From a virus: 64,000 nucleotides of DNA. Each line of letters opens with the position of its first letter. The first letter of the stretch is position 1. The notes beneath the pieces are model-generated. The model was not told where the DNA came from. It saw only the letters and a list, made by a program, of their open reading frames with translations, and did no database searches. The position numbers and the translations under genes were made by a program. This document shows, piece after piece, positions 50,846-63,913 of the stretch. The stretch is from positions 114,145-178,144 of IMG/VR virus record IMGVR_UViG_3300020733_000010, one strand, 5' to 3'.

Positions 50846-50848
50846 AGT

Positions 50849-51085: not shown

Positions 51086-51139
51086 GTTATGTTCCTTACG
51101 ATATACTAGTATATATCATGTTAAGGACTGTTGGTAAAA

Positions 51140-51511
51140 TTAGCTAATAGTTATTTCAAGAGAAACGTTTTTTGTGTCAACTGATGAGTTGAAGTCAGTT
51201 CCAAAAATAGTCATCAAATCATTTTTGTATTCATCGTAAGCACTACTAGAACTAAACACACCTACCCAATCATAACAAGTTTCAGATACTTGTTTCATTT
51301 CATTGACAAGGATGTTTCCAGACAAGTGATGCGGAACCTTCATTGTTTTTAGTGTTTCTAAATAGTCTTTTGGTTGTACTTTTGGATCTTTCAATATACC
51401 GTCACTAATCAACAAACTATAGAATGAATTGATGAAATCCAACATGTCCCCGCTAATGATGTATTTTGAGTCTTTGATTGTAAATTTTTTGTTAATAGTT
51501 ACTTTTTCCAT
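51140..51511 (-). CDS. Hypothetical protein (123 aa)
   Basis: SD aggag and its own ATAAATA motif (51527-51533, minus strand). Confidence 0.6.
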   Translation of the reverse strand: MEKVTINKKFTIKDSKYIISGDMLDFINSFYSLLISDGILKDPKVQPKDYLETLKTMKVPHHLSGNILVNEMKQVSETCYDWVGVFSSSSAYDEYKNDLMTIFGTDFNSSVDTKNVSLEITIS

Positions 51512-51532
51512 GATGATCTCCTAATGTATTTA

Positions 51533-52123
51533 TCAAAATTTTCTCCTAGAATTCAATGCAGTAGCACTGCGAATGAACACAGGATTGTTTTGCCATGTTT
51601 CCCCTATTCTTAGTTTTAACATGTTGTTGAATGCATCAAAGTCAGATAATTCATTTGGCATTATTTTAGCTTCGGTCACATATACGTACTCTTGTAGTTT
51701 GGGTATGTACTTTTGAAAAATCGTCATAGCACGTTCACTGTTGTACTGACGTTCAGAGACAATGGTATAGAATTTGTAGTAGCCTCTACTCTCTGCATAG
51801 TCAATCAACAATTCCGTTGCACTGGCTACCCCGTTTTCTCTTAAGTTTAGATTTACTGTGCGTTTGTTTGTGATTAGACTAGACAGAAACCAGTTTGGAA
51901 CACCCTTCCAGAATGTTCCTGTCACCGACGCAATCATCTTATCATCTTCCCATGTACCCGTAATACATACTAATGGGTTGGAAATCATTCGTTCAATTTG
52001 TTCTGGATCAGTCCATACATCAAATTTTTCATTGGGCTGATGTTTGTTCTGGGACAATTTTGCCTCACTATACATAGCAATTATGCTTGGTATATCATCT
52101 ATTGTACATACTTTAGTTAACAT
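51533..52123 (-). CDS. GNAT-like hypothetical protein, paralog C
   Basis: CITGTWEDDKMIASV, WFLSSL, LIDYAESRGYYKFYT and YVYVTE..I match the 43907/44503 pattern; CTAAATA at 52128-52134 (minus strand). Confidence 0.55.
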   Translation of the reverse strand: MLTKVCTIDDIPSIIAMYSEAKLSQNKHQPNEKFDVWTDPEQIERMISNPLVCITGTWEDDKMIASVTGTFWKGVPNWFLSSLITNKRTVNLNLRENGVASATELLIDYAESRGYYKFYTIVSERQYNSERAMTIFQKYIPKLQEYVYVTEAKIMPNELSDFDAFNNMLKLRIGETWQNNPVFIRSATALNSRRKF

Positions 52124-52168
52124 GTTTTATTTAGTTTCATGGTTTATACAACACAAAAAACATAACTG

Positions 52169-52197
52169 TTGACAACTAAACAGAACCCTGTTACATT
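52169..52197 (+). promoter_or_regulatory. Sigma70-type promoter P1
   Basis: TTGACA-17 nt-TACATT. Confidence 0.75.
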
Positions 52198-52268
52198 ACA
52201 TCATGGACTGAAAAATCAGTTAACGAAAACAAGTTGTATGTTTTGGGCAACAAGATTGAAAATAGTTG

Positions 52269-52297
52269 TTGACAACTAATCAAATCGGTAGTACACT
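52269..52297 (+). promoter_or_regulatory. Sigma70-type promoter P2, 100 bp downstream of P1
   Basis: TTGACA-17 nt-TACACT; shares gttgacaactaa with P1. Confidence 0.75.
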
Positions 52298-52374
52298 ACA
52301 TACTTCAAAAACAAAAAGTGAAGAAAAACACTATAAAATTGAAAGAATTTTTAACCAGGACTAAATAGATTACT

Positions 52375-52551
52375 ATGAAAACAATTATCTGTCAAACGCT
52401 GAAACATACAGGGATGTGGTCAACATTACCACAAGCTCAAGTGTCAGCCTTTGCGGGTAATAATGTACAACCCAGTATTCGCGGCTCAGAGTATAATGAT
52501 CCAAGAATGCCAGGGAGTTTCATAGAAGGAGAGAAGATTCCAAGAATCTAA
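52375..52551 (+). CDS. Putative 58-aa leader peptide (MKTIICQTLKHTGMWSTLPQAQVSAFAGNNVQPSIRGSEYNDPRMPGSFIEGEKIPRI)
   Basis: Translated by hand (below the 60-aa ORF cutoff); all 20 amino acids within codons 1-42; overlaps an antiterminator strand; agga 14 nt upstream and CTAAATA at 52361. Confidence 0.65.
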   Translation: MKTIICQTLKHTGMWSTLPQAQVSAFAGNNVQPSIRGSEYNDPRMPGSFIEGEKIPRI

Positions 52552-52609
52552 TCTCAAAAAGAATCTAAGAAACCCCTGGGAAACTAAACAGTCTCAGGGG
52601 TTTTTGTTT
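52510..52609 (+). terminator. Intrinsic terminator with overlapping antiterminator (attenuator)
   Basis: Terminator stem 52570-52581/52592-52603 plus TTTTTGTTT. Alternative helix 52510-52526/52564-52579 (15 bp, one bulge, one mismatch) consumes the terminator 5' arm. Confidence 0.8.
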
Positions 52610-52635
52610 GTGTAGTGAAAAAACAACGAAAGAGT

Positions 52636-52664
52636 TTGACAAGAAATGAAAGTTGAATTACAAT
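52636..52664 (+). promoter_or_regulatory. Sigma70-type promoter-like element downstream of the attenuator
   Basis: TTGACA-17 nt-TACAAT. Confidence 0.6.
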
Positions 52665-52801
52665 CTGGCACTTCTGATAATGCGAATTGGTTGAAAGAAA
52701 ATACGCTTACAGATGATGAAAGAAAAAAGTTGATTGAGGACAAGTTAATACGAGGTCTCAATCAGATAGAGTTAAACAGAAAAGTCCCAGTGACCGAGTA
52801 A
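52646..52801 (+). CDS. Small hypothetical protein (51 aa, MKVELQSG...VPVTE)
   Basis: Hand-translated ORF directly after the terminator; weak RBS. Confidence 0.35.
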   Translation: MKVELQSGTSDNANWLKENTLTDDERKKLIEDKLIRGLNQIELNRKVPVTE

Positions 52802-53035
52802 GTTTAACAAGCGTGAATAGGCAACGAGAGCCGTAATACAGCGCATAAATGTATAGAATGGGCGGACAGTAGGATGAAGTCTATGGCGATAACGTAGATT
52901 GTAAAATCACTGGGTAGGGTATTAACCCTATCATAGCATGGATGTTGAAAGATACATCATGCTATTCTAAAACATACTGGCCCCGAGAGCAGTCCTAACC
53001 GACAGAGGGTACGGATCAAGTGTGTTTTAGAATAG
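52786..53035 (+). ncRNA. Candidate structured RNA upstream of the first tRNA
   Basis: Helices 52786-52793/52907-52914, 52878-52885/52893-52900, 52933-52945/52954-52965 and a 17-bp stem 52962-52978/53019-53035. Confidence 0.45.
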
Positions 53036-53094
53036 TTGATGCGTGGAACATAAGCCCTCATGATGGGTGAAAGTACGCACTGCTTAGACATTGT

Positions 53095-53170
53095 TGGGGT
53101 GTAGTGTAATGGCTTATCACAGCGGGCTTTGAACTCGCTAATCTTGGTTCGATTCCAAGCACCCCTACCA
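53095..53170 (+). tRNA. tRNA-Gln(TTG)
   Basis: Cloverleaf, ctTTGaa loop, TTCGATT T-loop, CCA; 1:72 mismatch. Confidence 0.9.
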
Positions 53171-53179
53171 ACAAGTTAT

Positions 53180-53255
53180 ACCGTAGAGTTCAACTGGGGT
53201 TGATATCTCACTGTCTATGAGACTGCGGCGGGTTCGATTCCCGTCTACGGTGCCA
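53180..53255 (+). tRNA. tRNA-Asp(GTC)
   Basis: tctca-ctGTCta-tgaga arm, G73, CCA. Confidence 0.85.
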
Positions 53256-53260
53256 GTATT

Positions 53261-53337
53261 GCCTCAATAGCTCAGTTGGTTAGAGCACCGTCTTGATAAG
53301 GCGGGGGTGCCTAGTTCGAATCTAGGTTGAGGCACCA
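53261..53337 (+). tRNA. tRNA-Ile(GAT)
   Basis: Canonical cloverleaf, ttGATaa loop, CCA. Confidence 0.93.
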
Positions 53338-53342
53338 ATCAT

Positions 53343-53416
53343 GCCCGGTTAGTTAAAAAGTATAACACACCCCTGATAAGGGTGAATCAGAGGAGCGTTA
53401 CCTCTACTGGGTACCA
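53343..53416 (+). tRNA. tRNA-Ile(GAT), atypical copy
   Basis: caccc-ctGATaa-gggtg arm; T-loop AGCGTTA; D-loop lacks GG; CCA. Confidence 0.75.
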
Positions 53417-53424
53417 ATTTTTAT

Positions 53425-53503
53425 TCCGTAGAATTCGAGCATGGTGCACGGACTTGACTGTTAATCAATGACTAGCTGGGATCGTTACCCAGATACGGAG
53501 CCA
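53425..53503 (+). tRNA. tRNA-Asn(GTT), atypical copy
   Basis: ttga-ctGTTaa-tcaa arm, G73, T-loop ATCGTTA, CCA. Confidence 0.75.
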
Positions 53504-53510
53504 ATTTTAT

Positions 53511-53589
53511 CTGTGTGTAATGTCAGTCAGGTCAGACGGCTCGCCTTGGAAGTGAGAGGTCGCAGGTTCGAATCCTGCCACACAGACCA
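53511..53589 (+). tRNA. tRNA-Pro(TGG)
   Basis: Cloverleaf, ctTGGaa loop, CCA. Confidence 0.92.
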
Positions 53590-53600
53590 AACAATTTAAT

Positions 53601-53675
53601 GGGGGCAGTAGCGGGCTACGGGTGATCCTTGCAAGATTGCTGACTAGAAGGGTTCAACTCCCTCGGCTTCCACCA
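53601..53675 (+). tRNA. tRNA-Ala(TGC) with short D arm
   Basis: G3.U70 pair, A73, ctTGCaa loop, CCA; D arm gtag-cggg-ctac. Confidence 0.75.
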
Positions 53676-53681
53676 AACAAT

Positions 53682-53757
53682 ACCTCCTTCGCCAAGTTGG
53701 TAAGGCATCGGATTTTGATTCCGACATTCGGTGGTTCGAGTCCATCAGGGGGTGCCA
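53682..53757 (+). tRNA. tRNA-Gln(TTG), second copy
   Basis: tcgga-ttTTGat-tccga arm, CCA. Confidence 0.9.
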
Positions 53758-53777
53758 AATTATTTAAGGAGACTCAT

Positions 53778-53867
53778 ATGAGTTGGAATCAATCATTAGA
53801 AAAACATAAACAAGAGATTGAAGCATGGACAAAACTTTGTAATGTCTACAAGGAGTCTCTTTACTAA
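53778..53867 (+). CDS. Small protein (29 aa, MSWNQSLEKHKQEIEAWTKLCNVYKESLY)
   Basis: Strong SD aaggag 7 nt upstream of ATG 53778. Confidence 0.5.
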   Translation: MSWNQSLEKHKQEIEAWTKLCNVYKESLY

Positions 53868-53869
53868 AG

Positions 53870-54095
53870 AAATTAGCGGAGTCGCTCTCCGCAAAGAAAG
53901 CACTGCGACCTTAGCTTGCCCGGGCGGTATGTCAGTTACGAAACAGTTGAGTAAAAGTCTCTATGGGTAGGCACAAATAAAAGAATTGATCGGAAAGCAA
54001 GAGCCGAAGAGTAGACACTAGCGGATGATGGGTCATCATGTCCGTATAAGTCGGGATAACTGACTAGTGGGGTAAGAGTCCCTAATGTGCTCAGA
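53870..54095 (+). ncRNA. Candidate structured RNA
   Basis: Helices 53876-53881/53887-53892, 53931-53938/54057-54064 and 54022-54030/54034-54044 in a GC-richer non-coding gap. Confidence 0.4.
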
Positions 54096-54102
54096 AATTT
54101 AT

Positions 54103-54178
54103 ATCCTGTTAGTTTATCGGTTAAGAACAGTGGCCTTTCAAGTCGCAGAGACGGGTTCGATTCCCGTACAGGATGCCA
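54103..54178 (+). tRNA. tRNA-Glu(TTC)
   Basis: gtggc-ctTTCaa-gtcgc arm, CCA. Confidence 0.9.
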
Positions 54179-54725
54179 TTTCATTTTGAAAAATCTTTTT
54201 TGCTTTTTCAAATGTGATAAAAGATGTTGTGCTAATCTCTTTTACAAACACAGAGATACACAACCTATCACTGGTTATATTAGATATGTCATGCGGTAAG
54301 CCCACTTGAACTATACTAGGAAAGCCAACACGCTGACTATGTATAAGTTCAACATCATCACGTTTGTAATATTCGTATGTGATGCCTATCGCACTTGTGT
54401 TGGTTTGTATGTTATCAACTTTGGGTTGATACCAATTCATCACACTATCACCGCCTCCGTATACCCAGTTGATTTTTGTTGCGTCAGTCAATCCTGGTGC
54501 ATCTTTGTGAATGTTTGGGACAGCAATGTCCTCGGGCATTCTATAAAAACTTTCTGCAAGAGTAATTTGTAAGTTTTTGTTTTTAAAGAAATCAATGATT
54601 TTTGTATTGATAGTACTAGGATCAATTTTGTTATGTCGTTTATACTTTGACCTCAGTGAGTTCAAATAAACTTCATCCTCAATAAAAGGTATAGAGATAT
54701 TTAGGTCAATACAAAAGTCATTCAT
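54138..54725 (-). CDS. 2OG-Fe(II) oxygenase-like protein
   Basis: IHKD, INWVYGG, VQVGLPHDISN..RLCISV; 3' end runs antisense into tRNA-Glu. Confidence 0.7.
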   Translation of the reverse strand: MNDFCIDLNISIPFIEDEVYLNSLRSKYKRHNKIDPSTINTKIIDFFKNKNLQITLAESFYRMPEDIAVPNIHKDAPGLTDATKINWVYGGGDSVMNWYQPKVDNIQTNTSAIGITYEYYKRDDVELIHSQRVGFPSIVQVGLPHDISNITSDRLCISVFVKEISTTSFITFEKAKKIFQNEMASCTGIEPVSAT

Positions 54726-54729
54726 GCTG

Positions 54730-54747
54730 TATTTAACAAACTAAATA
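54730..54747. promoter_or_regulatory. Back-to-back late promoter motifs
   Basis: TTAAATA (minus, 54730-54736) and CTAAATA (plus, 54741-54747) in a 27-bp gap between divergent oxygenase genes. Confidence 0.65.
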
Positions 54748-54752
54748 ACATA

Positions 54753-55331
54753 ATGTTAGTAAAAACTTTATGTGAAGTTCCTATTGAACTTTTCAACAAT
54801 TCATTAATTGAAGTCAATAATATTGATTGGTCAAGTGTTGTTGATCCTTCACGCAAAGCAAGTGATGTGTTTTCAACAAGCACTGCGATTCACATGCGAG
54901 TTCATAAAGTTACAGATGACACACCAAAAACACTACGTGGATATTGTTCAGTAGTAGAGTGTGTTGATTCTTTACCTAACTCATTGCTATATCCAGAAGC
55001 ATACAAACTTGCAAACTGGATTTACAAACATGTTAATGGGTTACGTTTAGGTAGAATCATGTTAGTTAGGCTTGAAGCAGGTGGTTCTGTAGGATTACAC
55101 ATTGATCCATTTGAGTACTTTAAAGTATACTCACGATATCATGTACCCATCATTACAAATAGTAATGTACTATTCAGCGGCGGTGATGATTCAGAAAAAG
55201 AACACATGCCTGTAGGAATGTTAAGCAGACTTAACAATCGCAAGCCTCACATGCTAGTTAACGGTGGTTCAGATTTTAGAGTTCATTTGATTGTTGACGT
55301 TGAAACTGAAGGTGGAAACATCATATTTTAA
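54753..55331 (+). CDS. Aspartyl/asparaginyl beta-hydroxylase-family oxygenase
   Basis: GRIMLVRLEAGGSVGLHID, RYHVPIITN, LNNRKPHMLVN..RVHLIVD. Confidence 0.85.
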   Translation: MLVKTLCEVPIELFNNSLIEVNNIDWSSVVDPSRKASDVFSTSTAIHMRVHKVTDDTPKTLRGYCSVVECVDSLPNSLLYPEAYKLANWIYKHVNGLRLGRIMLVRLEAGGSVGLHIDPFEYFKVYSRYHVPIITNSNVLFSGGDDSEKEHMPVGMLSRLNNRKPHMLVNGGSDFRVHLIVDVETEGGNIIF

Positions 55332-56178
55332 TGTGGTCAATGTTCATCCTATAGAATTTACGTTCATTATCAGATACATCACTACCTAGAACTAGTTTTG
55401 TTCTACCATGAATAAAACTGTAGTTGTCATAGATTGCAATATCATACGTATCCCAAACATGTTTGTGATATAGTTCAGGATGTTCCAGTAACTCATCTAT
55501 GTATGTTTGTATCAAAGAACAATCAAGTTGTTTGATGTTATCAATATACACTTCCTTAATCCACGCATTCAAGTGTCCGTGTCTAACATAATAGTTAAGA
55601 CGCAATGACTTGTTGCCTGTAACAGGGTGTATCTTAATAAAATCATGCAGTTGTTCGTCAGTACCCATACTGTACCAACTTTGTTGTAATATAGTAACTC
55701 GGCTAATCAATTCTTTGAGTTTAGGTGAAAGGTACTCAATACCATCTTCAATGTTCAGCCAATATGTATTGCCTGATTCAACATTGTTGGGGTTCTTAAC
55801 GATCCATAATGCACGATGAGGGAATGGATTTTCTTTACGATTTGGTATATCAGCATGCCAAGCCATTACATCATTGCTAATGATCTTGGTTGAATGTATC
55901 TTGTTACTGAATTCAGTTATGTGATATGTCTTGTCGTTTTCTGATAGAGTAATACTACGTTCATTGCTATAGATGTAATCTTGTTGATTCCAAGGCTTGC
56001 CAAAACTGTGTCCAAACTTTGCATAGTCTAGTTCAGTAAAATTCATCTTTTTAAAAACAAGAAGTTTTCTTTGATAAATCAATTGTCTCCAGTAGTCAGT
56101 TGACTCATTAAAGAAATCTAATGGGTTATCAAATTCAACGATTGTTCCCCAAGATTTATGTATGGGTGTTAATCTCAT
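55321..56178 (-). CDS. TauD/TfdA-family dioxygenase
   Basis: WHAD, HPVTG..SL and DNYSFIHGR motifs; start moved to ATG 56178 (MRLTPIHKSWG), preceded by ATAAATA at 56184-56190, because the longer ORF start lies inside tRNA-Gly. Confidence 0.85.
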   Translation of the reverse strand: MRLTPIHKSWGTIVEFDNPLDFFNESTDYWRQLIYQRKLLVFKKMNFTELDYAKFGHSFGKPWNQQDYIYSNERSITLSENDKTYHITEFSNKIHSTKIISNDVMAWHADIPNRKENPFPHRALWIVKNPNNVESGNTYWLNIEDGIEYLSPKLKELISRVTILQQSWYSMGTDEQLHDFIKIHPVTGNKSLRLNYYVRHGHLNAWIKEVYIDNIKQLDCSLIQTYIDELLEHPELYHKHVWDTYDIAIYDNYSFIHGRTKLVLGSDVSDNERKFYRMNIDHIKI

Positions 56179-56192
56179 ACTGATATTTATAT

Positions 56193-56266
56193 GCGTGGTT
56201 AGTTTAACGGTAAAATCAAACATTGCCAATGTTTAGTCAAGGGTTCGACTCCCTTACCCCGCACCA
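56193..56266 (+). tRNA. tRNA-Gly(GCC)
   Basis: aaaca-ttGCCaa-tgttt arm, CCA. Confidence 0.88.
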
Positions 56267-56271
56267 GTTTT

Positions 56272-56329
56272 AGGATCGGTTCAGCAAACATAAAGCTAAC
56301 TTTGGATGTCTAGCGACAAAAACGATCCT
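56272..56329 (+). ncRNA. Small inter-tRNA stem-loop element
   Basis: aggatcg/cgatcct 7-bp closing stem enclosing gttCAGCAAacataaa. Confidence 0.35.
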
Positions 56330-56338
56330 GTTATATAT

Positions 56339-56415
56339 GCGACCTTAGCTCAGATGGATAGAGCACCAGGCTACGAACTTGGGGGTCAGGAGTTCGACTC
56401 TCTTAGGTCGCGCCA
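56339..56415 (+). tRNA. tRNA-Arg(ACG)
   Basis: Canonical cloverleaf, ctACGaa loop, CCA. Confidence 0.93.
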
Positions 56416-56416
56416 T

Positions 56417-56490
56417 GCTCTTTTAGTATAAAGGTATTACAATACATTGGTAATGTATAGACACTGGATCGTTACCAGTAAGGAGCACCA
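56417..56490 (+). tRNA. tRNA-Thr(GGT), atypical T-loop
   Basis: ataca-ttGGTaa-tgtat arm; T-loop ATCGTTA; CCA. Confidence 0.8.
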
Positions 56491-56505
56491 GCTATAAATA
56501 TTCAC

Positions 56506-57054
56506 ATGTTTCAAAAACTCAATGTGGATATCAACGTAGGTAACTTTTCTCATGGCAACAAAATTACTGAATATTCGTATACTGTATTAAATGACAAATC
56601 AGTACCGCTTATTCAGTATCATGTTGCGTTAGGAGAATGCCGCGAAAAAATGTTACAACTTCTTCCGGAGAGATTCCGTTCTGCATTCGTTATTAACATA
56701 ATGAATATAGCAGGTATAGTTGTACCACACACTGATAGTAACATTAGGTGTACTATCAATCACTATGTCCAAACGAATGATGAGGAAACTATTTTCTTTG
56801 CATTCAAAGAAAATGCTGAGGGTTTTCAAATAACAAATCAAACGAATGGTAGGTTATTTAAACTTGATGAAGTGAATCGTGTTGATTCTTTTATAGCAAA
56901 AGCCGGAGAAACATGGATACTAGATGTTACCAAACCTCACGGTGTTAAGGGTCAAATGCCTATTAAAGATTATCGTGTTGCGATAGTTATGAATACTAAT
57001 ACCTATTCGTATCAAGAGGTATTAGAAATGTTGAAAGAAACAAATTCAATTTAA
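56506..57054 (+). CDS. 2OG-Fe(II) oxygenase-like protein
   Basis: VVPHTD, INHY, WILDVTKPHGV..RVAIV; TATAAATA at 56493-56500. Confidence 0.7.
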   Translation: MFQKLNVDINVGNFSHGNKITEYSYTVLNDKSVPLIQYHVALGECREKMLQLLPERFRSAFVINIMNIAGIVVPHTDSNIRCTINHYVQTNDEETIFFAFKENAEGFQITNQTNGRLFKLDEVNRVDSFIAKAGETWILDVTKPHGVKGQMPIKDYRVAIVMNTNTYSYQEVLEMLKETNSI

Positions 57055-57055
57055 T

Positions 57056-57133
57056 GTGTCGGTGGCAGAGTGGTCCAATGCAACGGATTGCAAATCCGTA
57101 AAACCGTGAGTTCAAATCTCACCCGACATTCCA
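57056..57133 (+). tRNA. tRNA-Cys(GCA)
   Basis: acgga-ttGCAaa-tccgt arm, U73, CCA. Confidence 0.92.
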
Positions 57134-57139
57134 GTTAAT

Positions 57140-57256
57140 GCCGCTGTCGTCTAATGGTAGGACGCTTAAAAAGGTGACTCTGACAAGAGTACATACAGCA
57201 ACATAAAAATTCCATGTTAAGGAAGTTATGGAGGTTCGATTCCTTCCGGCGGCACC
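57140..57256 (+). ncRNA. tRNA-shaped RNA whose anticodon loop is replaced by a 46-nt insert
   Basis: Perfect acceptor, D and T arms plus CCA; cttaa/ttaag anticodon stem encloses 57170-57215. Confidence 0.7.
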
Positions 57257-57261
57257 AATTA

Positions 57262-57336
57262 TGCTCTGTTATTTCATGTGGTAGAATTCCGGTTTTGTAG
57301 TCCGGCGAGGATAGTTCAAGTCTGTCACAGAGCACC
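57262..57336 (+). tRNA. tRNA-Thr(TGT)
   Basis: ttTGTag loop, T-loop TTCAAGT, CCA. Confidence 0.85.
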
Positions 57337-57342
57337 AATTAT

Positions 57343-57409
57343 CCTCTGTGTAGTGTAACGGGAGCACACACGGCGCGCGGTGGTGAAGGTTCAATTCCTT
57401 CCACAGAGG
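57343..57409 (+). pseudogene. Degenerate tRNA-like element
   Basis: Acceptor and T arms intact; anticodon arm shortened and GC-rich with no U33 loop; no CCA. Confidence 0.55.
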
Positions 57410-57421
57410 GCCTAATACAAT

Positions 57422-57496
57422 GGATGTATAGCAAAGTGGTAATGCAGTATCTTCATACGGTACCTATCGCTAGTTCGAATCTAGCTACATCCACCA
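57422..57496 (+). tRNA. tRNA with CAT anticodon (Met or Ile2)
   Basis: gtatc-ttCATac-ggtac arm, CCA; G1-C72 pair argues against an initiator tRNA. Confidence 0.82.
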
Positions 57497-57626
57497 ATTT
57501 ACTGTCAAGTGTTTTGTCTCGTACAAATTCTTTGACATTTGTAGAACGAAGTCGATCTTGGTAAGGCTCTTTATTTTTAAGAGCATACTCATATAATGCT
57601 TTGAGTCCAGGGTTTTCTTTTTCCAT
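57453..57626 (-). CDS. Small hypothetical protein (57 aa, MEKENPGLKALYEYALKNKEPYQDRLRS...)
   Basis: Hand-translated; ATAAATA at 57631-57637 on the minus strand just upstream; 3' end antisense to the CAT tRNA. Confidence 0.45.
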   Translation of the reverse strand: MEKENPGLKALYEYALKNKEPYQDRLRSTNVKEFVRDKTLDSKLVDVARFELAIGTV

Positions 57627-57655
57627 ACAGTATTTATTTTCAAAATAAATATCAG

Positions 57656-58195
57656 ATGCAGTATTACAAGGAATTAGAAGTTAACCATTTTGATGTTATT
57701 GTGAACAAGACAATAACGTACATAAAAGAACGTACTTCTATTCTTGACGTACCTTTTGATTACAACTGGTACGCAGTCAATTTTGTTGACTTAGTTAAGT
57801 ATGTCCCTGAGTTAGATGATGCATTCAAGCAGTATAGTTTGGTTCCAAACTTTGCCGCTTTCTTTGTGGTATACAATAACAAGTCTACACAAATACACAA
57901 AGATATGTACCCATTAACATCACGAGTTAATTTTCCTATATTGAACTGTAAAGGTACATATACTGACTATTATAAAAATGTAGTCTTTCAAAAGACTACT
58001 AATTTGATTACTGGTATAAGTAGCTACCAAGTAACAAACACTGATTATGAATTAGTAGATTCTGTTGAGATTAAAAAGGCAACTTTACTAAATGTACAAG
58101 AAGCACATAAAGTTGAAGTGCCCGACGGAAATCCTATACCTAGAATAACATTGACTATTGGCTTTGACAAAGATCCTACATTTTTGTTAAATTGA
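57656..58195 (+). CDS. 2OG-Fe(II) oxygenase-like protein
   Basis: IHKD..RVNFPI, LLNVQEAHKV..RITLTI; ATAAATA at 57645-57651. Confidence 0.7.
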   Translation: MQYYKELEVNHFDVIVNKTITYIKERTSILDVPFDYNWYAVNFVDLVKYVPELDDAFKQYSLVPNFAAFFVVYNNKSTQIHKDMYPLTSRVNFPILNCKGTYTDYYKNVVFQKTTNLITGISSYQVTNTDYELVDSVEIKKATLLNVQEAHKVEVPDGNPIPRITLTIGFDKDPTFLLN

Positions 58196-58212
58196 TAATA
58201 GTTCGTTAAAAA

Positions 58213-58360
58213 GTTTTGAGATAGACGGTGAGATTGAGTCCCTTGTATGCTAGGTCCCTATTCTTGTGACTGACACGCCAGTAGCAGTATGAGGTTGTTA
58301 AACTCTCTCATTCGAGACAATCAGTTGAGTCCTTGAGAAAGATAGACTGGCGCTCAAAAA
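58213..58360 (+). ncRNA. Candidate structured RNA
   Basis: Adjacent helices 58214-58220/58353-58359 and 58276-58282/58346-58352; TTGAGTCC occurs twice. Confidence 0.3.
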
Positions 58361-58369
58361 CCTATACAT

Positions 58370-58445
58370 GGGTCGTTAACTCAGTGGACAGAGTACTTGG
58401 CTTCGAACCAAGGAGTCAGGGGTTCAAATCCTCTACGACCCTCCA
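58370..58445 (+). tRNA. tRNA-Arg(TCG)
   Basis: cttgg-ctTCGaa-ccaag arm, CCA. Confidence 0.9.
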
Positions 58446-58451
58446 AACAAT

Positions 58452-58544
58452 GGAAAGTAATGCAGGCGCGATGGTGTGCCGACTAGCCTTGAAAACTAGG
58501 TTCTCCGATAAGGGGATGGGGTTCGACTCCTCTGCTTTCCGCCA
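58452..58544 (+). tRNA. tRNA-Ser(TGA)
   Basis: ctTGAaa loop, long variable arm, G73, CCA. Confidence 0.85.
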
Positions 58545-58555
58545 AAATCATAAAT

Positions 58556-59104
58556 ATGAACATGTTACTATATTGTTATCCATTGTCTCATAACATCATA
58601 ACTCTTGATGAAGTTGAGTCAATTCAATTGATGAGTCAAAAAAATGAAAGTAAGTTCATTGACTATGTAAGTCAGTATGGTCATCGTGATAACAATAAGT
58701 TTTTAACACCGTTCAAGTTTCATTCTTTCTACCATGAACTACCTTTTATAAAAAAGTTAGTTAGTGGTTGTTCGCTAAAAACTTTCCCAGTCATTATGAA
58801 ACATACTGCTGGTTCAACGGTACGTAGACACATTGATGACCACAAAGATAGGCGAACATTGTTGAGCATACCTATTTGCCCTGAGGTAAATTATCCGCCC
58901 ACATATTTTTGGGAAACAATGGAATCAATAGAACCAATAGCAATAGCAACATTTGACACGATGTTACCTTGCTTGTTTAATACTACTCTTATTCATGGGT
59001 TGACAAATACACATGAAAGTGATAGAATAAACCTTCAATTTTGTTTCAGCGAACCCATTGAATTGGTAGCTGAACTGTTCAACAGCAAAAAACTGTTCAA
59101 CTAA
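58556..59104 (+). CDS. 2OG-Fe(II) oxygenase-like protein
   Basis: VRRHIDD..LLSIPI, LFNTTLIHGLTN..RINLQF; the ATG overlaps the last base of ATAAATA (58550-58556). Confidence 0.7.
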   Translation: MNMLLYCYPLSHNIITLDEVESIQLMSQKNESKFIDYVSQYGHRDNNKFLTPFKFHSFYHELPFIKKLVSGCSLKTFPVIMKHTAGSTVRRHIDDHKDRRTLLSIPICPEVNYPPTYFWETMESIEPIAIATFDTMLPCLFNTTLIHGLTNTHESDRINLQFCFSEPIELVAELFNSKKLFN

Positions 59105-59114
59105 AATAATTTAT

Positions 59115-59190
59115 GTTGTCCTTAGTGTAGTGGCCTGCACCCCATGTTGTGACCTTGGTAGTAAGAGTTCGATCCTCTTAGGACAACCCA
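59115..59190 (+). tRNA. tRNA-His(GTG)
   Basis: G-1:C73 pair, ttGTGac loop, CCA. Confidence 0.88.
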
Positions 59191-59201
59191 AACAATTTAA
59201 T

Positions 59202-59277
59202 GTCGCTTTAGCTGATGTGGTCATAGCGGTGGGCTGAAAACTCATGGAAGTTGGTTCGATTCCAACAGGCGACACCA
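59202..59277 (+). tRNA. tRNA-Phe(GAA)
   Basis: ctGAAaa loop, CCA. Confidence 0.92.
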
Positions 59278-59283
59278 AACAAT

Positions 59284-59358
59284 AGTTCCTTATTTCAGTG
59301 GTAGAATATCACATTGACATTGTGAAGGTCACTGGTTCGAACCCAGTAGGAACTACCA
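59284..59358 (+). tRNA. tRNA-Val(GAC)
   Basis: tcaca-ttGACat-tgtga arm, CCA. Confidence 0.9.
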
Positions 59359-59362
59359 TTAG

Positions 59363-59437
59363 CTCGTTATAGTTCAATGGATAGAACATATTCCTCCTAA
59401 GAATAGGATTCAGGTTCGATTCCTGGTAGCGAGACCA
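59363..59437 (+). tRNA. tRNA-Arg(CCT)
   Basis: tattc-ctCCTaa-gaata arm, CCA. Confidence 0.9.
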
Positions 59438-59451
59438 AGATAAATATCTGC

Positions 59452-59862
59452 ATGACGAAAAGAATATTAGCAACTTTATTCATCACAATCATGTGTGGTA
59501 TTTGTCATGCTAACTCAATTGAAGATTCAAAAAATCGTGCAATGATTGCAACTGTAACAGATGCAGTTACAACATCACTTGTGCTTTCACACGGTGGACA
59601 TGATTTGAATCCATTGATAGGAACAAGTCAGTCAAGAATTGTTCCTATAACTTTAGCTAAACTAGCATTGATAGGTGTTCTTGCAACATCTAACTTGCCA
59701 GAAAAAGAAAAAGAACAAAGTTTAAATGTTATTACATCAGTTTGGGCCGGAGGTTCTATTAACAACTTGTTAGTACTTGCAGGCGCTGCAAACCCAGTAA
59801 TTCTAATAGTTGGTACTATTAGTGCTTTTGTAATATACGATAAAATCTCAACTACACCTTGA
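59452..59862 (+). CDS. Membrane/secreted hypothetical protein (136 aa)
   Basis: Signal-like N-terminus, GGHDLNPLIG motif, hydrophobic helices; ATAAATA at 59440-59446. Confidence 0.6.
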   Translation: MTKRILATLFITIMCGICHANSIEDSKNRAMIATVTDAVTTSLVLSHGGHDLNPLIGTSQSRIVPITLAKLALIGVLATSNLPEKEKEQSLNVITSVWAGGSINNLLVLAGAANPVILIVGTISAFVIYDKISTTP

Positions 59863-59887
59863 CAATTATTCATAATTGTCATATACT
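59859..59887 (+). promoter_or_regulatory. Sigma70-type promoter with a palindromic operator in the spacer
   Basis: TTGACA-17 nt-TATACT; perfect inverted repeat TGACAATTA-N4-TAATTGTCA at 59860-59881. Confidence 0.7.
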
Positions 59888-59928
59888 ATGAAAGTAAATA
59901 CATGTAGAACATACACAAAGGAGTAAAC

Positions 59929-60489
59929 ATGGCTGTTCTAGCACTTGATATTTCCGGAGTACCCCGACAGTGGATCTCCAACGATGATGCAATCTCATAC
60001 CACGCAACTAACAGTGTTGCATGGAGTATGGGTGACATTGTGGCAAAATACCGCGGTGGTGTTCAAAACGATGGCTCACTAAGTTACATCGAATCACCAA
60101 GTATCATTGCTATCAAGGGTCATGGATTTAACCCACACAAACATGCACATGTTGCATTAAGCAACAAAACATTGTTCGGTCGTGACCGTTATGTTTGTGC
60201 ATACTGTGGAGATCACTTCCCTAACTACCATGATTTGAGTCGTGACCATATTTTGCCACGCTTTCATGGTGGTGAAAACACTTGGATGAACGTGGTTACT
60301 GCATGTAAAGAATGCAACAGTAAGAAGGGTCATAAGACACTAAAAGAATCACGAATGGAACTTCTTTATGTACCTTACGAACCTAACCACTTTGAAAACA
60401 TGATTCTACAGAACCGCAACATTCTTGCGGATCAAATGGAATACTTGATGACAGGTGTCCCTAAGCATTCAAGGATTTTGTTGTCTTAG
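59929..60489 (+). CDS. HNH endonuclease
   Basis: CAYCG, SRDHILPRFHGG..W.NVVTACKECNSKKG; SD aggag. Confidence 0.9.
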   Translation: MAVLALDISGVPRQWISNDDAISYHATNSVAWSMGDIVAKYRGGVQNDGSLSYIESPSIIAIKGHGFNPHKHAHVALSNKTLFGRDRYVCAYCGDHFPNYHDLSRDHILPRFHGGENTWMNVVTACKECNSKKGHKTLKESRMELLYVPYEPNHFENMILQNRNILADQMEYLMTGVPKHSRILLS

Positions 60490-60972
60490 AAAGAGTTTAT
60501 TGATTCTATATAGAGTTGATAAAGTCTGAAAACTTTGAATGAAGAAGGGTACAAACAACATGTACCTTTCTTCGTTTGTATCATTTTGTAAATTGTGATT
60601 CACATGTGTATCAAACATGTAAGCACAGTTCTCGCTCCAATCTATCTTGTATGTTGGCTTGTGATCCTCATCATAGAAAAATGTAGGAGTTGATTCGCAG
60701 TTGTATAATGGAATTTGTATAACTGCTTTGCGACGGTTGTCTTTGTGTATAGGTAAGCCAGTACCAGGACTAAATCGCATAACCATCATAGGAGTTTCAT
60801 ATAGTTGTATGACTGGATGAAATTTTTGTTTAATAACGGTACAATCAAGATTTTTAAATATTGATTGACCCCATTCAAGTTTTTCCCAATCGTCTTGATT
60901 AGATGATAAAACTTGTGATAGAATTTCTTTTGTGTTTAATTGTAGTTCGGGAAGTTTGATGTAAGGTAACAT
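60469..60972 (-). CDS. 2OG-Fe(II) oxygenase-like protein
   Basis: LPIHKD..VIQIPL, MFDTHVNHNLQN..RYMLFV; GTAAATA at 60977-60983 (minus strand). Confidence 0.7.
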   Translation of the reverse strand: MLPYIKLPELQLNTKEILSQVLSSNQDDWEKLEWGQSIFKNLDCTVIKQKFHPVIQLYETPMMVMRFSPGTGLPIHKDNRRKAVIQIPLYNCESTPTFFYDEDHKPTYKIDWSENCAYMFDTHVNHNLQNDTNEERYMLFVPFFIQSFQTLSTLYRINKLFLRQQNP

Positions 60973-60983
60973 CTACTATTTAC

Positions 60984-61012
60984 TTGACAAAAAAGTTGCC
61001 GTATGATAAACT
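60984..61012 (+). promoter_or_regulatory. Sigma70-type promoter
   Basis: TTGACA-17 nt-TAAACT upstream of tRNA-Thr. Confidence 0.65.
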
Positions 61013-61056
61013 ACATTAAATAAAGATACAGTGAGTAACTTCACTGTTTCACAATC

Positions 61057-61131
61057 GCCCTTGTATCCTTAGTGGTAGAGGTCCTGTTTTGTAAGCAGGG
61101 TGTGGTGGTTCGATTCCATCCTGGGGCACCA
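61057..61131 (+). tRNA. tRNA-Thr(TGT), second copy
   Basis: cctgt-ttTGTaa-gcagg arm, CCA. Confidence 0.88.
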
Positions 61132-61139
61132 AAGATTAT

Positions 61140-61216
61140 TCCCTAGTAGCTCAGTCGGTAGAAGCGCCAAACTGTTAATTTGGATGTCGGAAGTTCGAGC
61201 CTTCCCTGGGGAGCCA
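61140..61216 (+). tRNA. tRNA-Asn(GTT), canonical copy
   Basis: ccaaa-ctGTTaa-tttgg arm, G73, CCA. Confidence 0.92.
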
Positions 61217-61222
61217 ATAAAA

Positions 61223-61276
61223 TATAACCTCTAACCAACGTATAGGCATAAATACTTATACAGGTTAGAGGTTATA
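61223..61276 (+). promoter_or_regulatory. RBS-sequestering hairpin with a late promoter in its loop
   Basis: Perfect 14-bp inverted repeat 61223-61236/61263-61276; ATAAATA at 61248-61254; GAGG SD lies in the 3' arm. Confidence 0.8.
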
Positions 61277-61282
61277 CATCAA

Positions 61283-61849
61283 ATGTCAATATCATCAAAT
61301 AGAGTTAAAGCATGGCGCCATCGCACTAAAGAACGAATGGTTGAGGCTATGGGCGGAAAGTGTCAGTGTTGCGGATACGATGCATGTAAAGAAGCATTAG
61401 CATTCCACCACATAGATCCTTCACATAAAGAATTAGCGTTTGGAAATTTACGAGCCAATCCTCAAACTTGGATTAAGGTAGTCGAAGAATTAAAAAAATG
61501 TATATTAGTGTGTCATAATTGCCATAGTGAAATACATGCCGGGTTTCGTGAAGTCCCTGAGGTGTATACTGCGTTTGATGAATCATTCGCTGATTATAGA
61601 CAACTAAAAACAGAATACGATTCTTGCCCTCATTGTGGTATAGAAAAACCAAAATCTAATAAGTTTTGTAGCCCAAAATGTGCATCATCTAACCGTCGAA
61701 AGGTTGACTGGAATAGCATTAATGTGTTAGAATTACTAGAAGAACACGGTATAACAAAACTAGAAGAAATGCTAGGAGTTTCTAATGCCGCAATTTATAA
61801 ACAGCGAAACAAAATCCTAAAAGGAAAACAACATGCTAATTGCAGATAA
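61283..61849 (+). CDS. HNH endonuclease, probable free-standing homing endonuclease
   Basis: CQCCGY..ALAFHHIDP..KCILVCHNCHSEIH; C-terminal CPHC..FCSPKC zinc motif and HTH-like tail. Confidence 0.85.
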   Translation: MSISSNRVKAWRHRTKERMVEAMGGKCQCCGYDACKEALAFHHIDPSHKELAFGNLRANPQTWIKVVEELKKCILVCHNCHSEIHAGFREVPEVYTAFDESFADYRQLKTEYDSCPHCGIEKPKSNKFCSPKCASSNRRKVDWNSINVLELLEEHGITKLEEMLGVSNAAIYKQRNKILKGKQHANCR

Positions 61850-62027
61850 CGGTGGACATAAAACTTTTTGCGAAGTGAAAAAGATTCACGTAGGTGAAAA
61901 CAATAACCATGTTCGTATCTATACCACATTTGATGGCTCTCGTGAGCCAGACTATCAGCAAACTAAGTTTGAGGCATTTTTAACTGACCAAGAACTTGAC
62001 GCACTAAGACAAACGCTAAACGCCTAA
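61833..62027 (+). CDS. Hypothetical protein (64 aa)
   Basis: SD aagga; overlaps the HNH stop. Confidence 0.55.
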   Translation: MLIADNGGHKTFCEVKKIHVGENNNHVRIYTTFDGSREPDYQQTKFEAFLTDQELDALRQTLNA

Positions 62028-62032
62028 TATAT

Positions 62033-62107
62033 CTGGCTGTAGCACAATGGACAGTGCAGTAGCCTTCTAAGCTATTGATCCAGGTTCGATTCCTGGCAGC
62101 CGGACCA
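62033..62107 (+). tRNA. tRNA-Arg(TCT)
   Basis: gtagc-ctTCTaa-gctat arm, CCA. Confidence 0.92.
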
Positions 62108-62138
62108 AACACTGTTGTAAAAATACAACAAAAAAGAT

Positions 62139-62222
62139 TTGACAATAAATCATTTTGGTGCTATACTACTTGTATTGAAGTTGATAAAGCAATCTTGCTT
62201 ATCACGAAGGCTCATTAAAATT
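62139..62222 (+). promoter_or_regulatory. Sigma70 promoter followed by a hairpin and a boxA-like element
   Basis: TTGACA-17 nt-TATACT (62139-62167); hairpin about 62183-62203; GCTCATTAAAATT at 62210-62222. Confidence 0.65.
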
Positions 62223-62313
62223 TTGTAAAGTACTTTAGGCTGATGACGGCAATCAGAAAGCAGTCTGAAATCTGACCCCATTGCAGTAGCTTTGCCGAGC
62301 AAATGTGAAGGGA

Positions 62314-62397
62314 GTTGATATGATGAAAGTGGTAGACATGGGGGCTTTAGAGGTCCCCGCAGTAAACAGCGTGTAGGTTCGAATCCTACTATCATTT
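62314..62397 (+). tRNA. tRNA-Leu(TAG), imperfect acceptor stem, no encoded CCA
   Basis: ggggc-ttTAGag-gtccc arm, long variable arm, gtagg-TTCGAAT-cctac; lies inside a 24-bp inverted repeat. Confidence 0.65.
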
Positions 62398-62433
62398 ATC
62401 AGATATCAGCCTAAAGTATTTTACAAAAATCTA

Positions 62434-62520
62434 TTGACAATAAATGCAAGTGGTGTTATACTACTTGTATTGAAGTTAAGAAAGTGATCGTGCTTTCTTA
62501 CAAACAGTCTTTAACAATTT
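62434..62520 (+). promoter_or_regulatory. Sigma70 promoter followed by a hairpin and an rrn-type boxA
   Basis: TTGACA-17 nt-TATACT (62434-62462); hairpin 62478-62485/62492-62499; TCTTTAACAATTT at 62508-62520. Confidence 0.7.
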
Positions 62521-62569
62521 AAATTTTGTATAGACCCTGTTAAGTTCAGGGCTCTATACGAGAATGTAT

Positions 62570-62975
62570 TAGGTTAACAACCCCACTAGGTTGTTTACTG
62601 TCTTTTAAAGTACCCGCCGGGGTACACACAGTAAATGACATGAAGCAGGGTCAGTAGCTTAGGCTATGTAGACTCGGAGTCGCGGTGGACAAGTTGCAAG
62701 TAATATGTTTAGTGTCTTATCGGTAGACGGTACCGTGAGAAGGCTGCGGCGCAGTTGCGACATTAAGCACCCCAATATGTTTTCGTATAGAGTTTATATG
62801 CAAACGACTTACGATATTGTAAGGAAGATTCAGCGTTACGCACTGAATAACCTTGATGGTATTCGTATAAAGTTTATTACAACTTGCATGAGTAGGTCGT
62901 TTACTTATAAGTTTGTATCACTGTACCGAGAAGTGCCTTAGAGCCCATTTTAAGATTATGAGTACAGTGATACTT
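62570..62975 (+). ncRNA. Candidate large (about 400 nt) structured RNA
   Basis: Helices 62594-62601/62628-62635, 62610-62615/62620-62625, 62695-62701/62882-62888, 62802-62812/62892-62902 and a perfect 12-bp 62915-62926/62962-62973; no convincing CDS. Confidence 0.55.
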
Positions 62976-62977
62976 TT

Positions 62978-63052
62978 GGAGCATTCGTCTATCGGTTAGG
63001 ACATCAGGTTTTCATCCTGAGAAGAGGAGTTCGACTCTCCTATGCTCTTCCA
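62978..63052 (+). tRNA. tRNA-Glu(TTC), second copy
   Basis: tcagg-ttTTCat-cctga arm, CCA. Confidence 0.9.
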
Positions 63053-63059
63053 AGTTTTT

Positions 63060-63138
63060 GCAGTGATGGAGAAGACAGACGCCCGAAAGAGCGTTTCATA
63101 CTAGTTGTCACAGTGGTTCGAGTCCACTGGCTGCGCCA
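63060..63138 (+). ncRNA. tRNA-like RNA with T arm and CCA but no D or anticodon arm
   Basis: cagtgg-TTCGAGT-ccactg, short acceptor gcagt/gctgc, CCA; interior gacgc-ccgaaaga-gcgtt hairpin. Confidence 0.5.
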
Positions 63139-63143
63139 AACAG

Positions 63144-63385
63144 ACACGAGGGTGGCAGTAGACACTGTCCAAGATGGTACCCATGTAAAAGCTCATCAAC
63201 AATACTAAGGCAATAGTTAGTACTAGAGTAACTGAAAACCGACCCGGGGGAGACTTCCCGGGCTTCACGAAAGTGACGAACGATAAGCAAAGTCGGTCCA
63301 GGTAGGGTAAGGAAAAGTATTGTCAGCGGAAAGACTGTAACAAGGACAGAAGTTATGGGTTGCGTAGCACTCAATAACGCCGTGT
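63144..63385 (+). ncRNA. Candidate structured RNA (about 240 nt)
   Basis: Nested helices 63144-48/63381-85, 63199-206/63316-323, 63238-43/63292-97, cccggg hairpin and cac-GAAA-gtg, plus crossing helices 63165-70/63344-49 and 63179-84/63355-60. Confidence 0.55.
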
Positions 63386-63404
63386 ATTCCTTGAACAAAT
63401 TTAT

Positions 63405-63480
63405 GCTTCGTTAGCTCAATCGGGAGAGCGCCACCCTGTCACGGTGGAGGCAAGGGGATCGAAACCCCTACGAGGCGCCA
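63405..63480 (+). tRNA. tRNA-Asp(GTC), second copy with A54 T-loop
   Basis: ccacc-ctGTCac-ggtgg arm; T-loop ATCGAAA; G73; CCA. Confidence 0.88.
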
Positions 63481-63485
63481 TAATT

Positions 63486-63582
63486 GGAGAGTTGGGTGAG
63501 CTGGCTGAAACCACCTTCCTGCTAAGAAGACATATGGAGCAAAAACTCTGTATCGAGGGTTCGAATCCCTCACTCTCCGCCA
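63486..63582 (+). tRNA. tRNA-Ser(GCT)
   Basis: ctGCTaa loop, long variable arm, G73, CCA. Confidence 0.9.
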
Positions 63583-63679
63583 GAGCAAATAGTAGTCTCC
63601 TGTTATATGACTACTCAATGTTTGTTAGTTTCAATGGGTGTTATAGAAACTAACATTTTTTAAACAAAAGGAAATTGAC

Positions 63680-63700
63680 ATGAAACGTAGTAAACGTTAG
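63680..63700 (+). other. Mini-ORF MKRSKR* with SD, embedded in a hairpin
   Basis: aagga SD, then ATG AAA CGT AGT AAA CGT TAG, flanked by ttgaca/tgtcaa. Confidence 0.4.
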
Positions 63701-63759
63701 TGTCAATCTTGATCCCGTATTGGTCAAGGTTGGCACGTAAAATCAATTAATTACGACAA

Positions 63760-63834
63760 CCCTTGGTAGCGCAGTGGTAGCGCAACGGACTCTTAATCCG
63801 CTGGTCGTCAGTTCGAATCTGACCCAAGGGACCA
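63760..63834 (+). tRNA. tRNA-Lys(CTT)
   Basis: ctCTTaa loop, CCA. Confidence 0.9.
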
Positions 63835-63838
63835 ATAT

Positions 63839-63913
63839 GGGGGTATAACTTAACGGCTAAAGTAAGGGGCTTTTAACCCCGAAATCAGAGTTCGATTCTC
63901 TGTGCCCCTACCA
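63839..63913 (+). tRNA. tRNA-Lys(TTT)
   Basis: gggg-ctTTTaa-cccc arm, CCA. Confidence 0.9.

Follow-up and report, generated by a model that had tools for sequence, protein, structure and literature searches.

A leader ORF containing all 20 amino acids, with competing antiterminator and terminator folds, at the head of a phage tRNA array: a candidate attenuator sensing general decoding failure

Among the closest described systems is the short upstream ORF (uORF) of mycobacterial whiB7, where efficient translation leads to termination and a stalled ribosome leads to read-through (PMC10274678). That uORF senses solely the amino acids it contains and has been activated experimentally by knock-down of tRNAs and of tRNA synthetases (PMC10274678); in M. 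smegmatis it contains all amino acids but Cys (PMC10274678). A stall in a short leader ORF is reported to turn a terminator off in bmrB-bmrCD of B. subtilis (PMC4191407) and in mef/mel (PMC4335068). The leaders of the amino-acid operons, trpL, hisL, leuL, thrL, pheL, and ilv, are made up of a translated leader, a terminator, and an antiterminator that uses the terminator 5' arm. Their stop codon lies just before the terminator, and the genes they regulate remedy what is sensed. The viral locus described here resembles them in all of these respects, and a full-text literature search found no published description of it.

The window, by which we mean the whole stretch of 64,000 nucleotides that was analyzed, forms the final 64 kb of a viral contig of 178 kb with a CheckV completeness of about one half, and it encodes virion proteins and ribonucleotide reductase. 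The coordinates of the features discussed are collected in Table 1. Neither blastn nor tblastn finds a match for the region or for the leader peptide in the GenBank phages (50,697 records), hence no cultured carrier is known. The gene adjoining the leader ORF upstream encodes a 196-aa protein in the window, and a back-translated search with this neighbor yields no relatives. Elsewhere the upstream neighbor is an unknown protein of 360 to 417 aa or a SPASM radical SAM enzyme, and it varies by locus. Further upstream in the window, positions 41418-52123 hold a cluster encoding an FkbM methyltransferase, a GNAT, three fatty-acid desaturases, a PP-loop ATPase, and a phosphopantetheinyl transferase, together with an acyl carrier protein, a radical SAM enzyme, and an Asp/Arg hydroxylase. 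This is a biosynthetic or modification module, which is uncommon for a phage.

Table 1. Positions, strand, and particulars of the features of the leader and its surroundings (numbering of the window)
Feature	Positions	Strand	Particulars
Promoter P1, sigma-70 type	52169..52197	+	TTGACA-17-TACATT with TG extension, 10/12
Promoter P2, tandem with P1	52269..52297	+	TTGACA-17-TACACT, 10/12
Near-invariant box AACCAGGACTAAATA	52353..52367	+	7 nt 5' of leader ATG
Leader ORF, 58 codons plus stop	52375..52551	+	56 distinct homologues
Sensor part (putative), codons 1-42, all 20 amino acids	52375..52500	+	51/56 complete; simulation P<0.001
Long imperfect hairpin in ORF	52381..52466	+	-27.3 kcal/mol; paired cells 71.6% vs about 40% in slid controls
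seg2, antiterminator 5' strand	52510..52526	+	Codons 46-51, Pro-Gly-Ser-Phe-Ile-Glu
Stop-codon hairpin	52529..52555	+	Stop (52549-52551) in 3' side or loop; joins seg2 and seg3
seg3, antiterminator 3' strand	52564..52579	+	Overlaps terminator 5' arm
Intrinsic terminator	52570..52612	+	12-bp stem 52570-52581 / 52592-52603, 10-nt loop, U-tract to 52612
Promoter P3, directly past terminator	52636..52664	+	TTGACA-17-TACAAT, 11/12
Second small ORF (ORF2), 51 aa	52646..52801	+	Conserved; no known family
tRNA array, 28 genes (ARAGORN)	53095..63913	+	Array cut by contig end

A protein search for the leader peptide gives 12 homologues. Three anchored DNA scans were run as well, one for the pattern of seg2 followed by seg3 in viral contigs, one in viral contigs for the 5'-UTR box together with the terminator arm, and one for this latter pattern in metagenome contigs, where the anchor of box plus arm constrains neither the ORF nor seg2. 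Combined, the searches give about 90 related loci with 56 distinct peptides of 47 to 59 residues. The frame that opens at the conserved ATG stays open in every homologue (56 distinct, in ten lengths). Between the ATG and seg2, 15 of 15 gap runs are multiples of three, being 3, 6, 9, or 12 nt long; gaps in the UTR and after seg2 are of 1 to 7 nt and are multiples of three in 7 of 27 cases. On this sequence evidence, the leader ORF is predicted to be translated, and we have no direct translation data.

The leader peptides have diverged to about 50% identity and carry the conserved motifs MWS..P, PSIR, and PGSFIEG. Neither the leader peptide nor ORF2, the neighboring small protein, has a family in Pfam or PHROGs. 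As a mark of the leader, dN/dS had to be discarded, as it does not separate the leader (about 0.47) from ORF2 (0.46). Because the motifs PSIR and PGSFIEG are conserved and the dN/dS is like that of ORF2, a role of the leader peptide itself is not excluded. Codon rarity (CAI-like value 0.58, the 6.6th percentile of gene windows) and the count of distinct codons (30 of 42, in the top 4.3%) were tried as marks too and set aside as only mildly unusual; several of the rare leader codons fall in paired segments. The phage's own tRNAs can read nearly all leader codons, save the TCN serine codons, so there is no telling whether host or phage tRNAs would be sensed. Directly past seg2 and still within the ORF, at 52526-52531, there is a consensus Shine-Dalgarno sequence, AAGGAG, which has no start codon behind it and is kept in most relatives; it may keep the ribosome in place, or slow it, close to the stop codon.

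The locus came to attention through a sequence-only reading, which had described a 58-codon ORF at 52375-52551 reaching all 20 amino acids by codon 42, with 30 distinct codons to that point and 36 overall, and those counts are correct. The same reading credited the first 42 codons with all four Gly and all three Ile codons, which does not hold, as the fourth Gly codon (gga) is codon 52 and the third Ile codon (ata) is codon 50, though the 30 distinct codons stand. For a single sequence, such coverage is not significant alone. An ORF has a 0.3-1% chance of covering all 20 amino acids within 42 codons, and 2.5 to 8 such ORFs are therefore expected among the 808 genome ORFs of at least 42 codons, against the 1 seen. 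It is across the family that coverage goes beyond chance. All 20 amino acids occur in 51 of the 56 peptides, with completion at residue 39 to 44, and the incomplete peptides (5 of 56) each lack exactly one amino acid, Cys in four cases and Val in one. Independent draws from the family's own composition are complete in 0.9% of cases at 42 residues, 2.4% at 48, and 5.6% at 55. In the null simulation, which is conditioned on the window peptide, each site evolves independently along the family tree under its own frequencies and rate; of 55 relatives, 21.3 ± 7.6 then stay complete, and no more than 45 in any of 1000 runs, versus 50 observed. As a control from the same loci, ORF2 (53 aa there), which matches the leader in length and dN/dS, has 14 to 19 kinds of amino acid and is complete in 0 of 37.

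That the coverage should survive divergence was a check which the sequence-only reading had itself proposed, and the way it survives is that the rare residues move to other positions. Cys, His, and Trp are single-copy in about 90% of the peptides, and no amino acid is enriched in runs. The sole residue makes use of 5 alignment columns for Cys, 5 for His, 2 for Trp, 4 for Tyr, and 5 for Val. At locus L005 the change C6L is offset by a new Cys33, and H11Q is offset by a new His19 at L013 and by a new His7 at L008. L067 is without the one Val it had, and in its sister L084 a Val is found at a different site. In one subgroup of leaders, Cys, His, and Trp are permuted among four positions. The 20-amino-acid set of the leader is kept by selection. 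The set is complete 3-4 codons 5' of seg2 in all lineages, with most of its codons well upstream and the last one or two borderline. A ribosome footprint reaches about 12-15 nt ahead of the A site, and since the last residue of the set (Asp or Glu) is 3-4 codons from seg2, a ribosome stalled there would cover the first seg2 bases.

The pairing of 52510-52526 with 52564-52579 is as it had been read from the letters, 15 bp interrupted by a bulged A and an A.A mismatch, and the duplex has a predicted energy of -22.5 kcal/mol. Also present as read are the small stop-codon hairpin and the 12-bp terminator of 52570-52603 with its U-tract; the terminator stem is G+C-rich, at -20.4 kcal/mol. Folding of the two states, another of the proposed checks, finds them isoenergetic in the window at 52500-52612, with -32.3 kcal/mol for the antiterminator state and -32.5 kcal/mol for the terminator state. 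The window's transcript without the terminator 3' arm folds as the antiterminator. Means over the 57 distinct relatives are -29.8 for the antiterminator and -32.4 for the terminator, and -14.2 with a shuffled ORF end (z -5.6). The ORF end is the partner of the terminator arm in 55 of 57 relatives. In these models, the antiterminator and terminator folds are conserved and mutually exclusive.

Covariation of the two helices had been proposed as a check also, and the outcome differs between them: compensatory changes support the antiterminator, but the terminator, with 98.8% of cells paired over 57 sequences and few changes, all of them pairing-compatible, is almost invariant and so supplies consistency and little covariation. 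In the 16-pair antiterminator helix (alignment A3), 89% of cells are standard pairs versus 26-61% in slid controls, and 12 cells are changed on both sides versus 2.5 in shuffles, none of the 500 shuffles being as high. In 9 sequences GCUUC:GAAGC stands in place of GUUUC:GAAAC, and L049 has the U.G intermediate. In the GCUUC:GAAGC sequences the encoded Pro-Gly-Ser becomes Ala-Arg-Gly with the base pairing kept, which argues that pairing rather than peptide is conserved at seg2. The most divergent loci, L042 and L057, keep the CCGGGG:CCCCUGG half of the helix and have the other half rebuilt from unrelated sequence that includes the stop codon, and L045 and L039 have disruptive antiterminator changes. 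The antiterminator covariation rests on few independent events. The stop-codon hairpin recurs at the corresponding place in relatives, with the stop codon within or beside its loop and with different stems (GUUAC/GUAAC, GAUAC/GUAUC, UACG/CGUA).

The leader is more complex than the simple model of two competing folds, having in addition a hairpin in the ORF body, complementarity between the start region and seg2, and a second partner for the terminator arm in the 5' UTR. The stretch 52300-52615 is unusually structured (z -6.2), and there are covarying hairpins at the P1 5' end, in the 5' UTR, and in the ORF body. The core of the 52381-52466 hairpin exhibits G-C to A-U and U-A to C-G swaps, and we infer that this hairpin is a candidate RNA polymerase pause or synchronizing hairpin. 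The CCAGG of the AACCAGGACTAAATA box is a weaker alternative partner for the terminator 5' arm, with a duplex of -12.6 kcal/mol, and is the minimum free energy partner of that arm in some nascent folds. In the longer nascent transcript of the window, the arm favors this 5'-UTR CCAGG box, which counts against the simple model. As to the start of the ORF, the region CUAUGAAA (52373-52380) is perfectly complementary to UUUCAUAG (52518-52525) within seg2. The CUAUGAA:UUCAUAG core of this pairing is unchanged in 46 of 46 sequences, and L042 has CUAUGAU at the start together with a 3' element AUCAUAG. With -8.1 kcal/mol and a family z of -2.2 this is a weak pairing; it could prevent re-initiation on leaders that have been terminated. 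Against Rfam, 52150-52650 has no T-box or other family match at E ≤ 1, the only matches being tRNAs, downstream. The contigs of L003 and L005 end within the terminator hairpin, directly past the leader, and these breaks in the assemblies suggest that strains vary, or that repeats occur, where the tRNA array begins.

The tandem sigma70 promoters at 52169 and 52269 and the promoter-like site at 52636, all three of which had been picked out earlier, are found with the hexamer matches given in Table 1. The P1 hexamers are kept among relatives, and in L008 and L018 both promoters ahead of the leader are 12/12 consensus. P3 is found in most relatives and is missing from L007, L008, L018, and similar loci. 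In all loci anchored by seg2 and seg3, an anchor independent of the box, the AACCAGGACTAAATA box is identical or one base off (C to A), and it is probably a start context or a late-promoter-like TAAATA box. TAAATA lies 3-5 nt 5' of the ATG in 19 of 132 long ORFs of the genome, the others having AGGA or GGAG. The CTAAATA box shortly before the leader ATG is thus a normal start context in this genome, and the caveat of a weak ribosome-binding site, raised in the sequence-only reading, is softened to that extent. Two smaller elements accompany the promoters. The P1 transcript would start with a small hairpin at 52205-52222 (stem ACUGA/UCAGU, loop GAGAAAUC), and in relatives the loop GAGAAAUC is kept, with covariation in the stem (ACUGA/UCAGU, GUUGA/UCAAC, AUUGA/UCGAU, UCUGA/UCAGA); the hairpin may act as a 5'-end stabilizer or a protein site. 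A GGGCAAC box at 52245-52251, about 18 nt 5' of the P2 -35, recurs ahead of P1 or P2 in many relatives, and may be an UP-like element or a factor site.

Downstream of the leader, tRNA genes are present in 69 of the 69 loci that have at least 650 nt of sequence there. All of the tRNAs, 638 of 638, are on the leader's strand, and the first one, usually tRNA-Gln, is 288-1262 nt away. The upstream genes differ by locus and the downstream tRNA array is invariant, and the leader is always linked to the tRNA array. The relative G001, of 359,563 nt and rated 100% complete, has one array of 34 tRNAs for all 20 amino acids, which starts directly past the leader; this array (L094/L095) spans the record ends, and a circular permutation of the assembly is probable for that reason. 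One tRNA-Ile(UAU) call in G001 is 92 nt long and may hold an insert. In the window, a tRNA-like sequence at 58452-58540 scores 34 bits on the Rfam tRNA-Sec model (threshold 47) and has no ARAGORN call; it is probably a missed long-arm tRNA.

Between the terminator and the first tRNA lies ORF2, with the conserved core W..(H/N)(T/S)L(T/S).(E/D)(E/Q)..(K/Q)LI..K..R. In relatives without P3 its start is 7 nt past the terminator U-tract. In the window, the ORF2 ATG falls between the -35 and the -10 of P3, so that the full ORF2 would be readable only from read-through transcripts. With P3 directly past the terminator in the window and in most relatives, the switch would modulate only part of the tRNA transcription. 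The sequence-only reading had entered that caveat on account of the site at 52636, and for the window it remains, but it does not carry over to L008 and L018, which lack P3. Nothing comparable to the consensus promoters of those two loci is found there between the terminator and the first tRNA, hence tRNA expression in them needs read-through. The rest of the interval in the window, 52800-53094, is without a long ORF, has a motif GGGCGGACAGTA in common with L039, and may be a structured RNA.

We consider it probable, with no expression or termination data to draw on, that the element at the head of the phage tRNA array works as a ribosome-mediated transcription attenuator and responds to decoding failure in general. 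The sequence-only reading had inferred such a switch, and the outcomes of its computational checks support that inference. In the mechanism we propose, two strong tandem promoters would transcribe a leader of about 300 nt in which an ORF of about 55 codons is translated; its final codons (seg2) would pair with the terminator 5' arm (seg3). Since seg2 is made first, the antiterminator would be the default in the nascent RNA, and transcription would continue into ORF2 and the tRNA genes. A smoothly translating ribosome that arrives at the stop codon would have melted seg2 and would occupy the connecting hairpin, whereupon the terminator would form and transcription would stop. A ribosome delayed within the first 40 or so codons, or the lack of any ribosome, would leave seg2 free to capture the terminator arm, with read-through as the predicted result. 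As those first 40 or so codons hold every amino acid, the rare ones mostly in one copy, a shortage of any single charged tRNA should raise read-through. It also follows from predicted read-through as the untranslated default that the terminator would work only with tightly coupled transcription and translation in the host. We infer in which direction the switch works, that it responds to stalling, and what triggers it naturally. Candidate triggers could be tRNA cleavage by host defenses, tRNA loss during infection, starvation, or translation inhibitors. A narrower version is offered as a tentative possibility only, and we doubt it more than we believe it: that this is an all-aminoacyl-tRNA phage sensor acting as an inducible counter-defense, in which the loss of any one tRNA species, through a host anticodon nuclease or through tRNA decay brought on by infection, would cause a stall in the leader, the stall would give read-through from the two consensus promoters to a complete tRNA set, and ORF2 would be co-induced.

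The attenuator reading has to be weighed against a small functional peptide that has its own promoters and an ordinary leaky terminator, and that is possibly a precursor modified by the neighbor enzymes, in which case seg2:seg3 would be just mRNA structure at the 3' end. The conserved motifs with a variable C-terminal tail (EKIPRI, GDGYA, GVGSK) do resemble a leader-core layout, genes for radical SAM/SPASM, B12-radical SAM, and Asp/Arg hydroxylase enzymes lie upstream in the window and in several relatives, and the dN/dS, as given above, matches that of the neighboring small protein. Those upstream genes, however, change between loci, and what is invariant is the tRNA array downstream. Nor would a functional peptide explain why Cys, His, Trp, Tyr, and Val, each present singly, shift columns and yet persist, while the replacement of Pro-Gly-Ser by Ala-Arg-Gly without loss of base pairs argues for selection on the RNA, and not the protein, at seg2. 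The lack of a Pfam or PHROG match and the need for read-through in relatives without P3 also tell against it. Constant linkage to a maturase and a known precursor family, the criteria for a RiPP precursor, are not met, and a wider linkage to the enzyme cluster is not excluded. On balance, we hold the functional peptide to be quite unlikely.

The locus might alternatively be a translation-coupled terminator or insulator without any amino-acid sensing, which damps the early promoters to a fixed level or frees a stable leader RNA, with the ORF merely there to load the ribosome. Such a device would go with a whole leader that is so unusually structured, covarying hairpins included, with the start region and seg2 being complementary in every one of the 46 sequences, and with the presence of P3 past the terminator in most relatives. 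What it leaves unexplained is the selection for a complete amino-acid set and the completion of that set just 5' of seg2 in every lineage, and we regard it as unlikely. It might finally be asked if the all-20 composition and the alternative pairing are chance in one small ORF that happens to lie beside a terminator. The number of all-20-in-42 ORFs expected in the genome would allow for that in the window, but the 56 distinct homologues share both properties and show compensated changes, so chance is refuted at the family level and we give it next to no credence.

Phage tRNA arrays are usually treated as constitutive cargo. The element suggests that they are regulated, by direct read-out of decoding capacity, and it ties the tRNA-targeting defenses of hosts to the question of why large phages carry full tRNA sets. 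If the attenuator reading is true, this leader peptide would be the first to be selected for the full 20-amino-acid alphabet and not for a single-residue run, and it would be a natural compact reporter for shortage of any charged tRNA.

In its layout the element is most readily set beside whiB7, which has a short uORF followed by an intrinsic terminator and a competing antiterminator, the uORF holding many kinds of amino acid (PMC10274678). The whiB7 uORF differs in that it belongs to a host gene for a transcription factor and has a species-variable composition, with several amino acids missing in M. tuberculosis and an enrichment in alanine (PMC10274678). In the phage leader the full set is under selection, the setting is viral, tRNAs are what is regulated, and there is no sequence similarity to whiB7. 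That whiB7 works in the direction proposed here makes the model credible, and the class is accordingly a known kind of switch in a new form. In the amino-acid operon leaders the regulatory codons, of one or a few kinds, come in runs, and a 1:2 hairpin leads to termination when there is no translation, whereas the phage leader has no runs, has its rare residues singly, and has read-through as the predicted default when untranslated. To our knowledge, no requirement on amino-acid composition attaches to the bmrB-bmrCD and mef/mel leaders. These are different again in that they are reported to respond to drug-stalled ribosomes and to control resistance genes. T-box riboswitches are similar in that tRNA charging sets the expression of translation genes through a choice between terminator and antiterminator, and are different in that they bind one specific uncharged tRNA directly, with no need of a ribosome. 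The novel points here are selection for the full alphabet, a virus as the setting, and an output that consists of tRNA genes.
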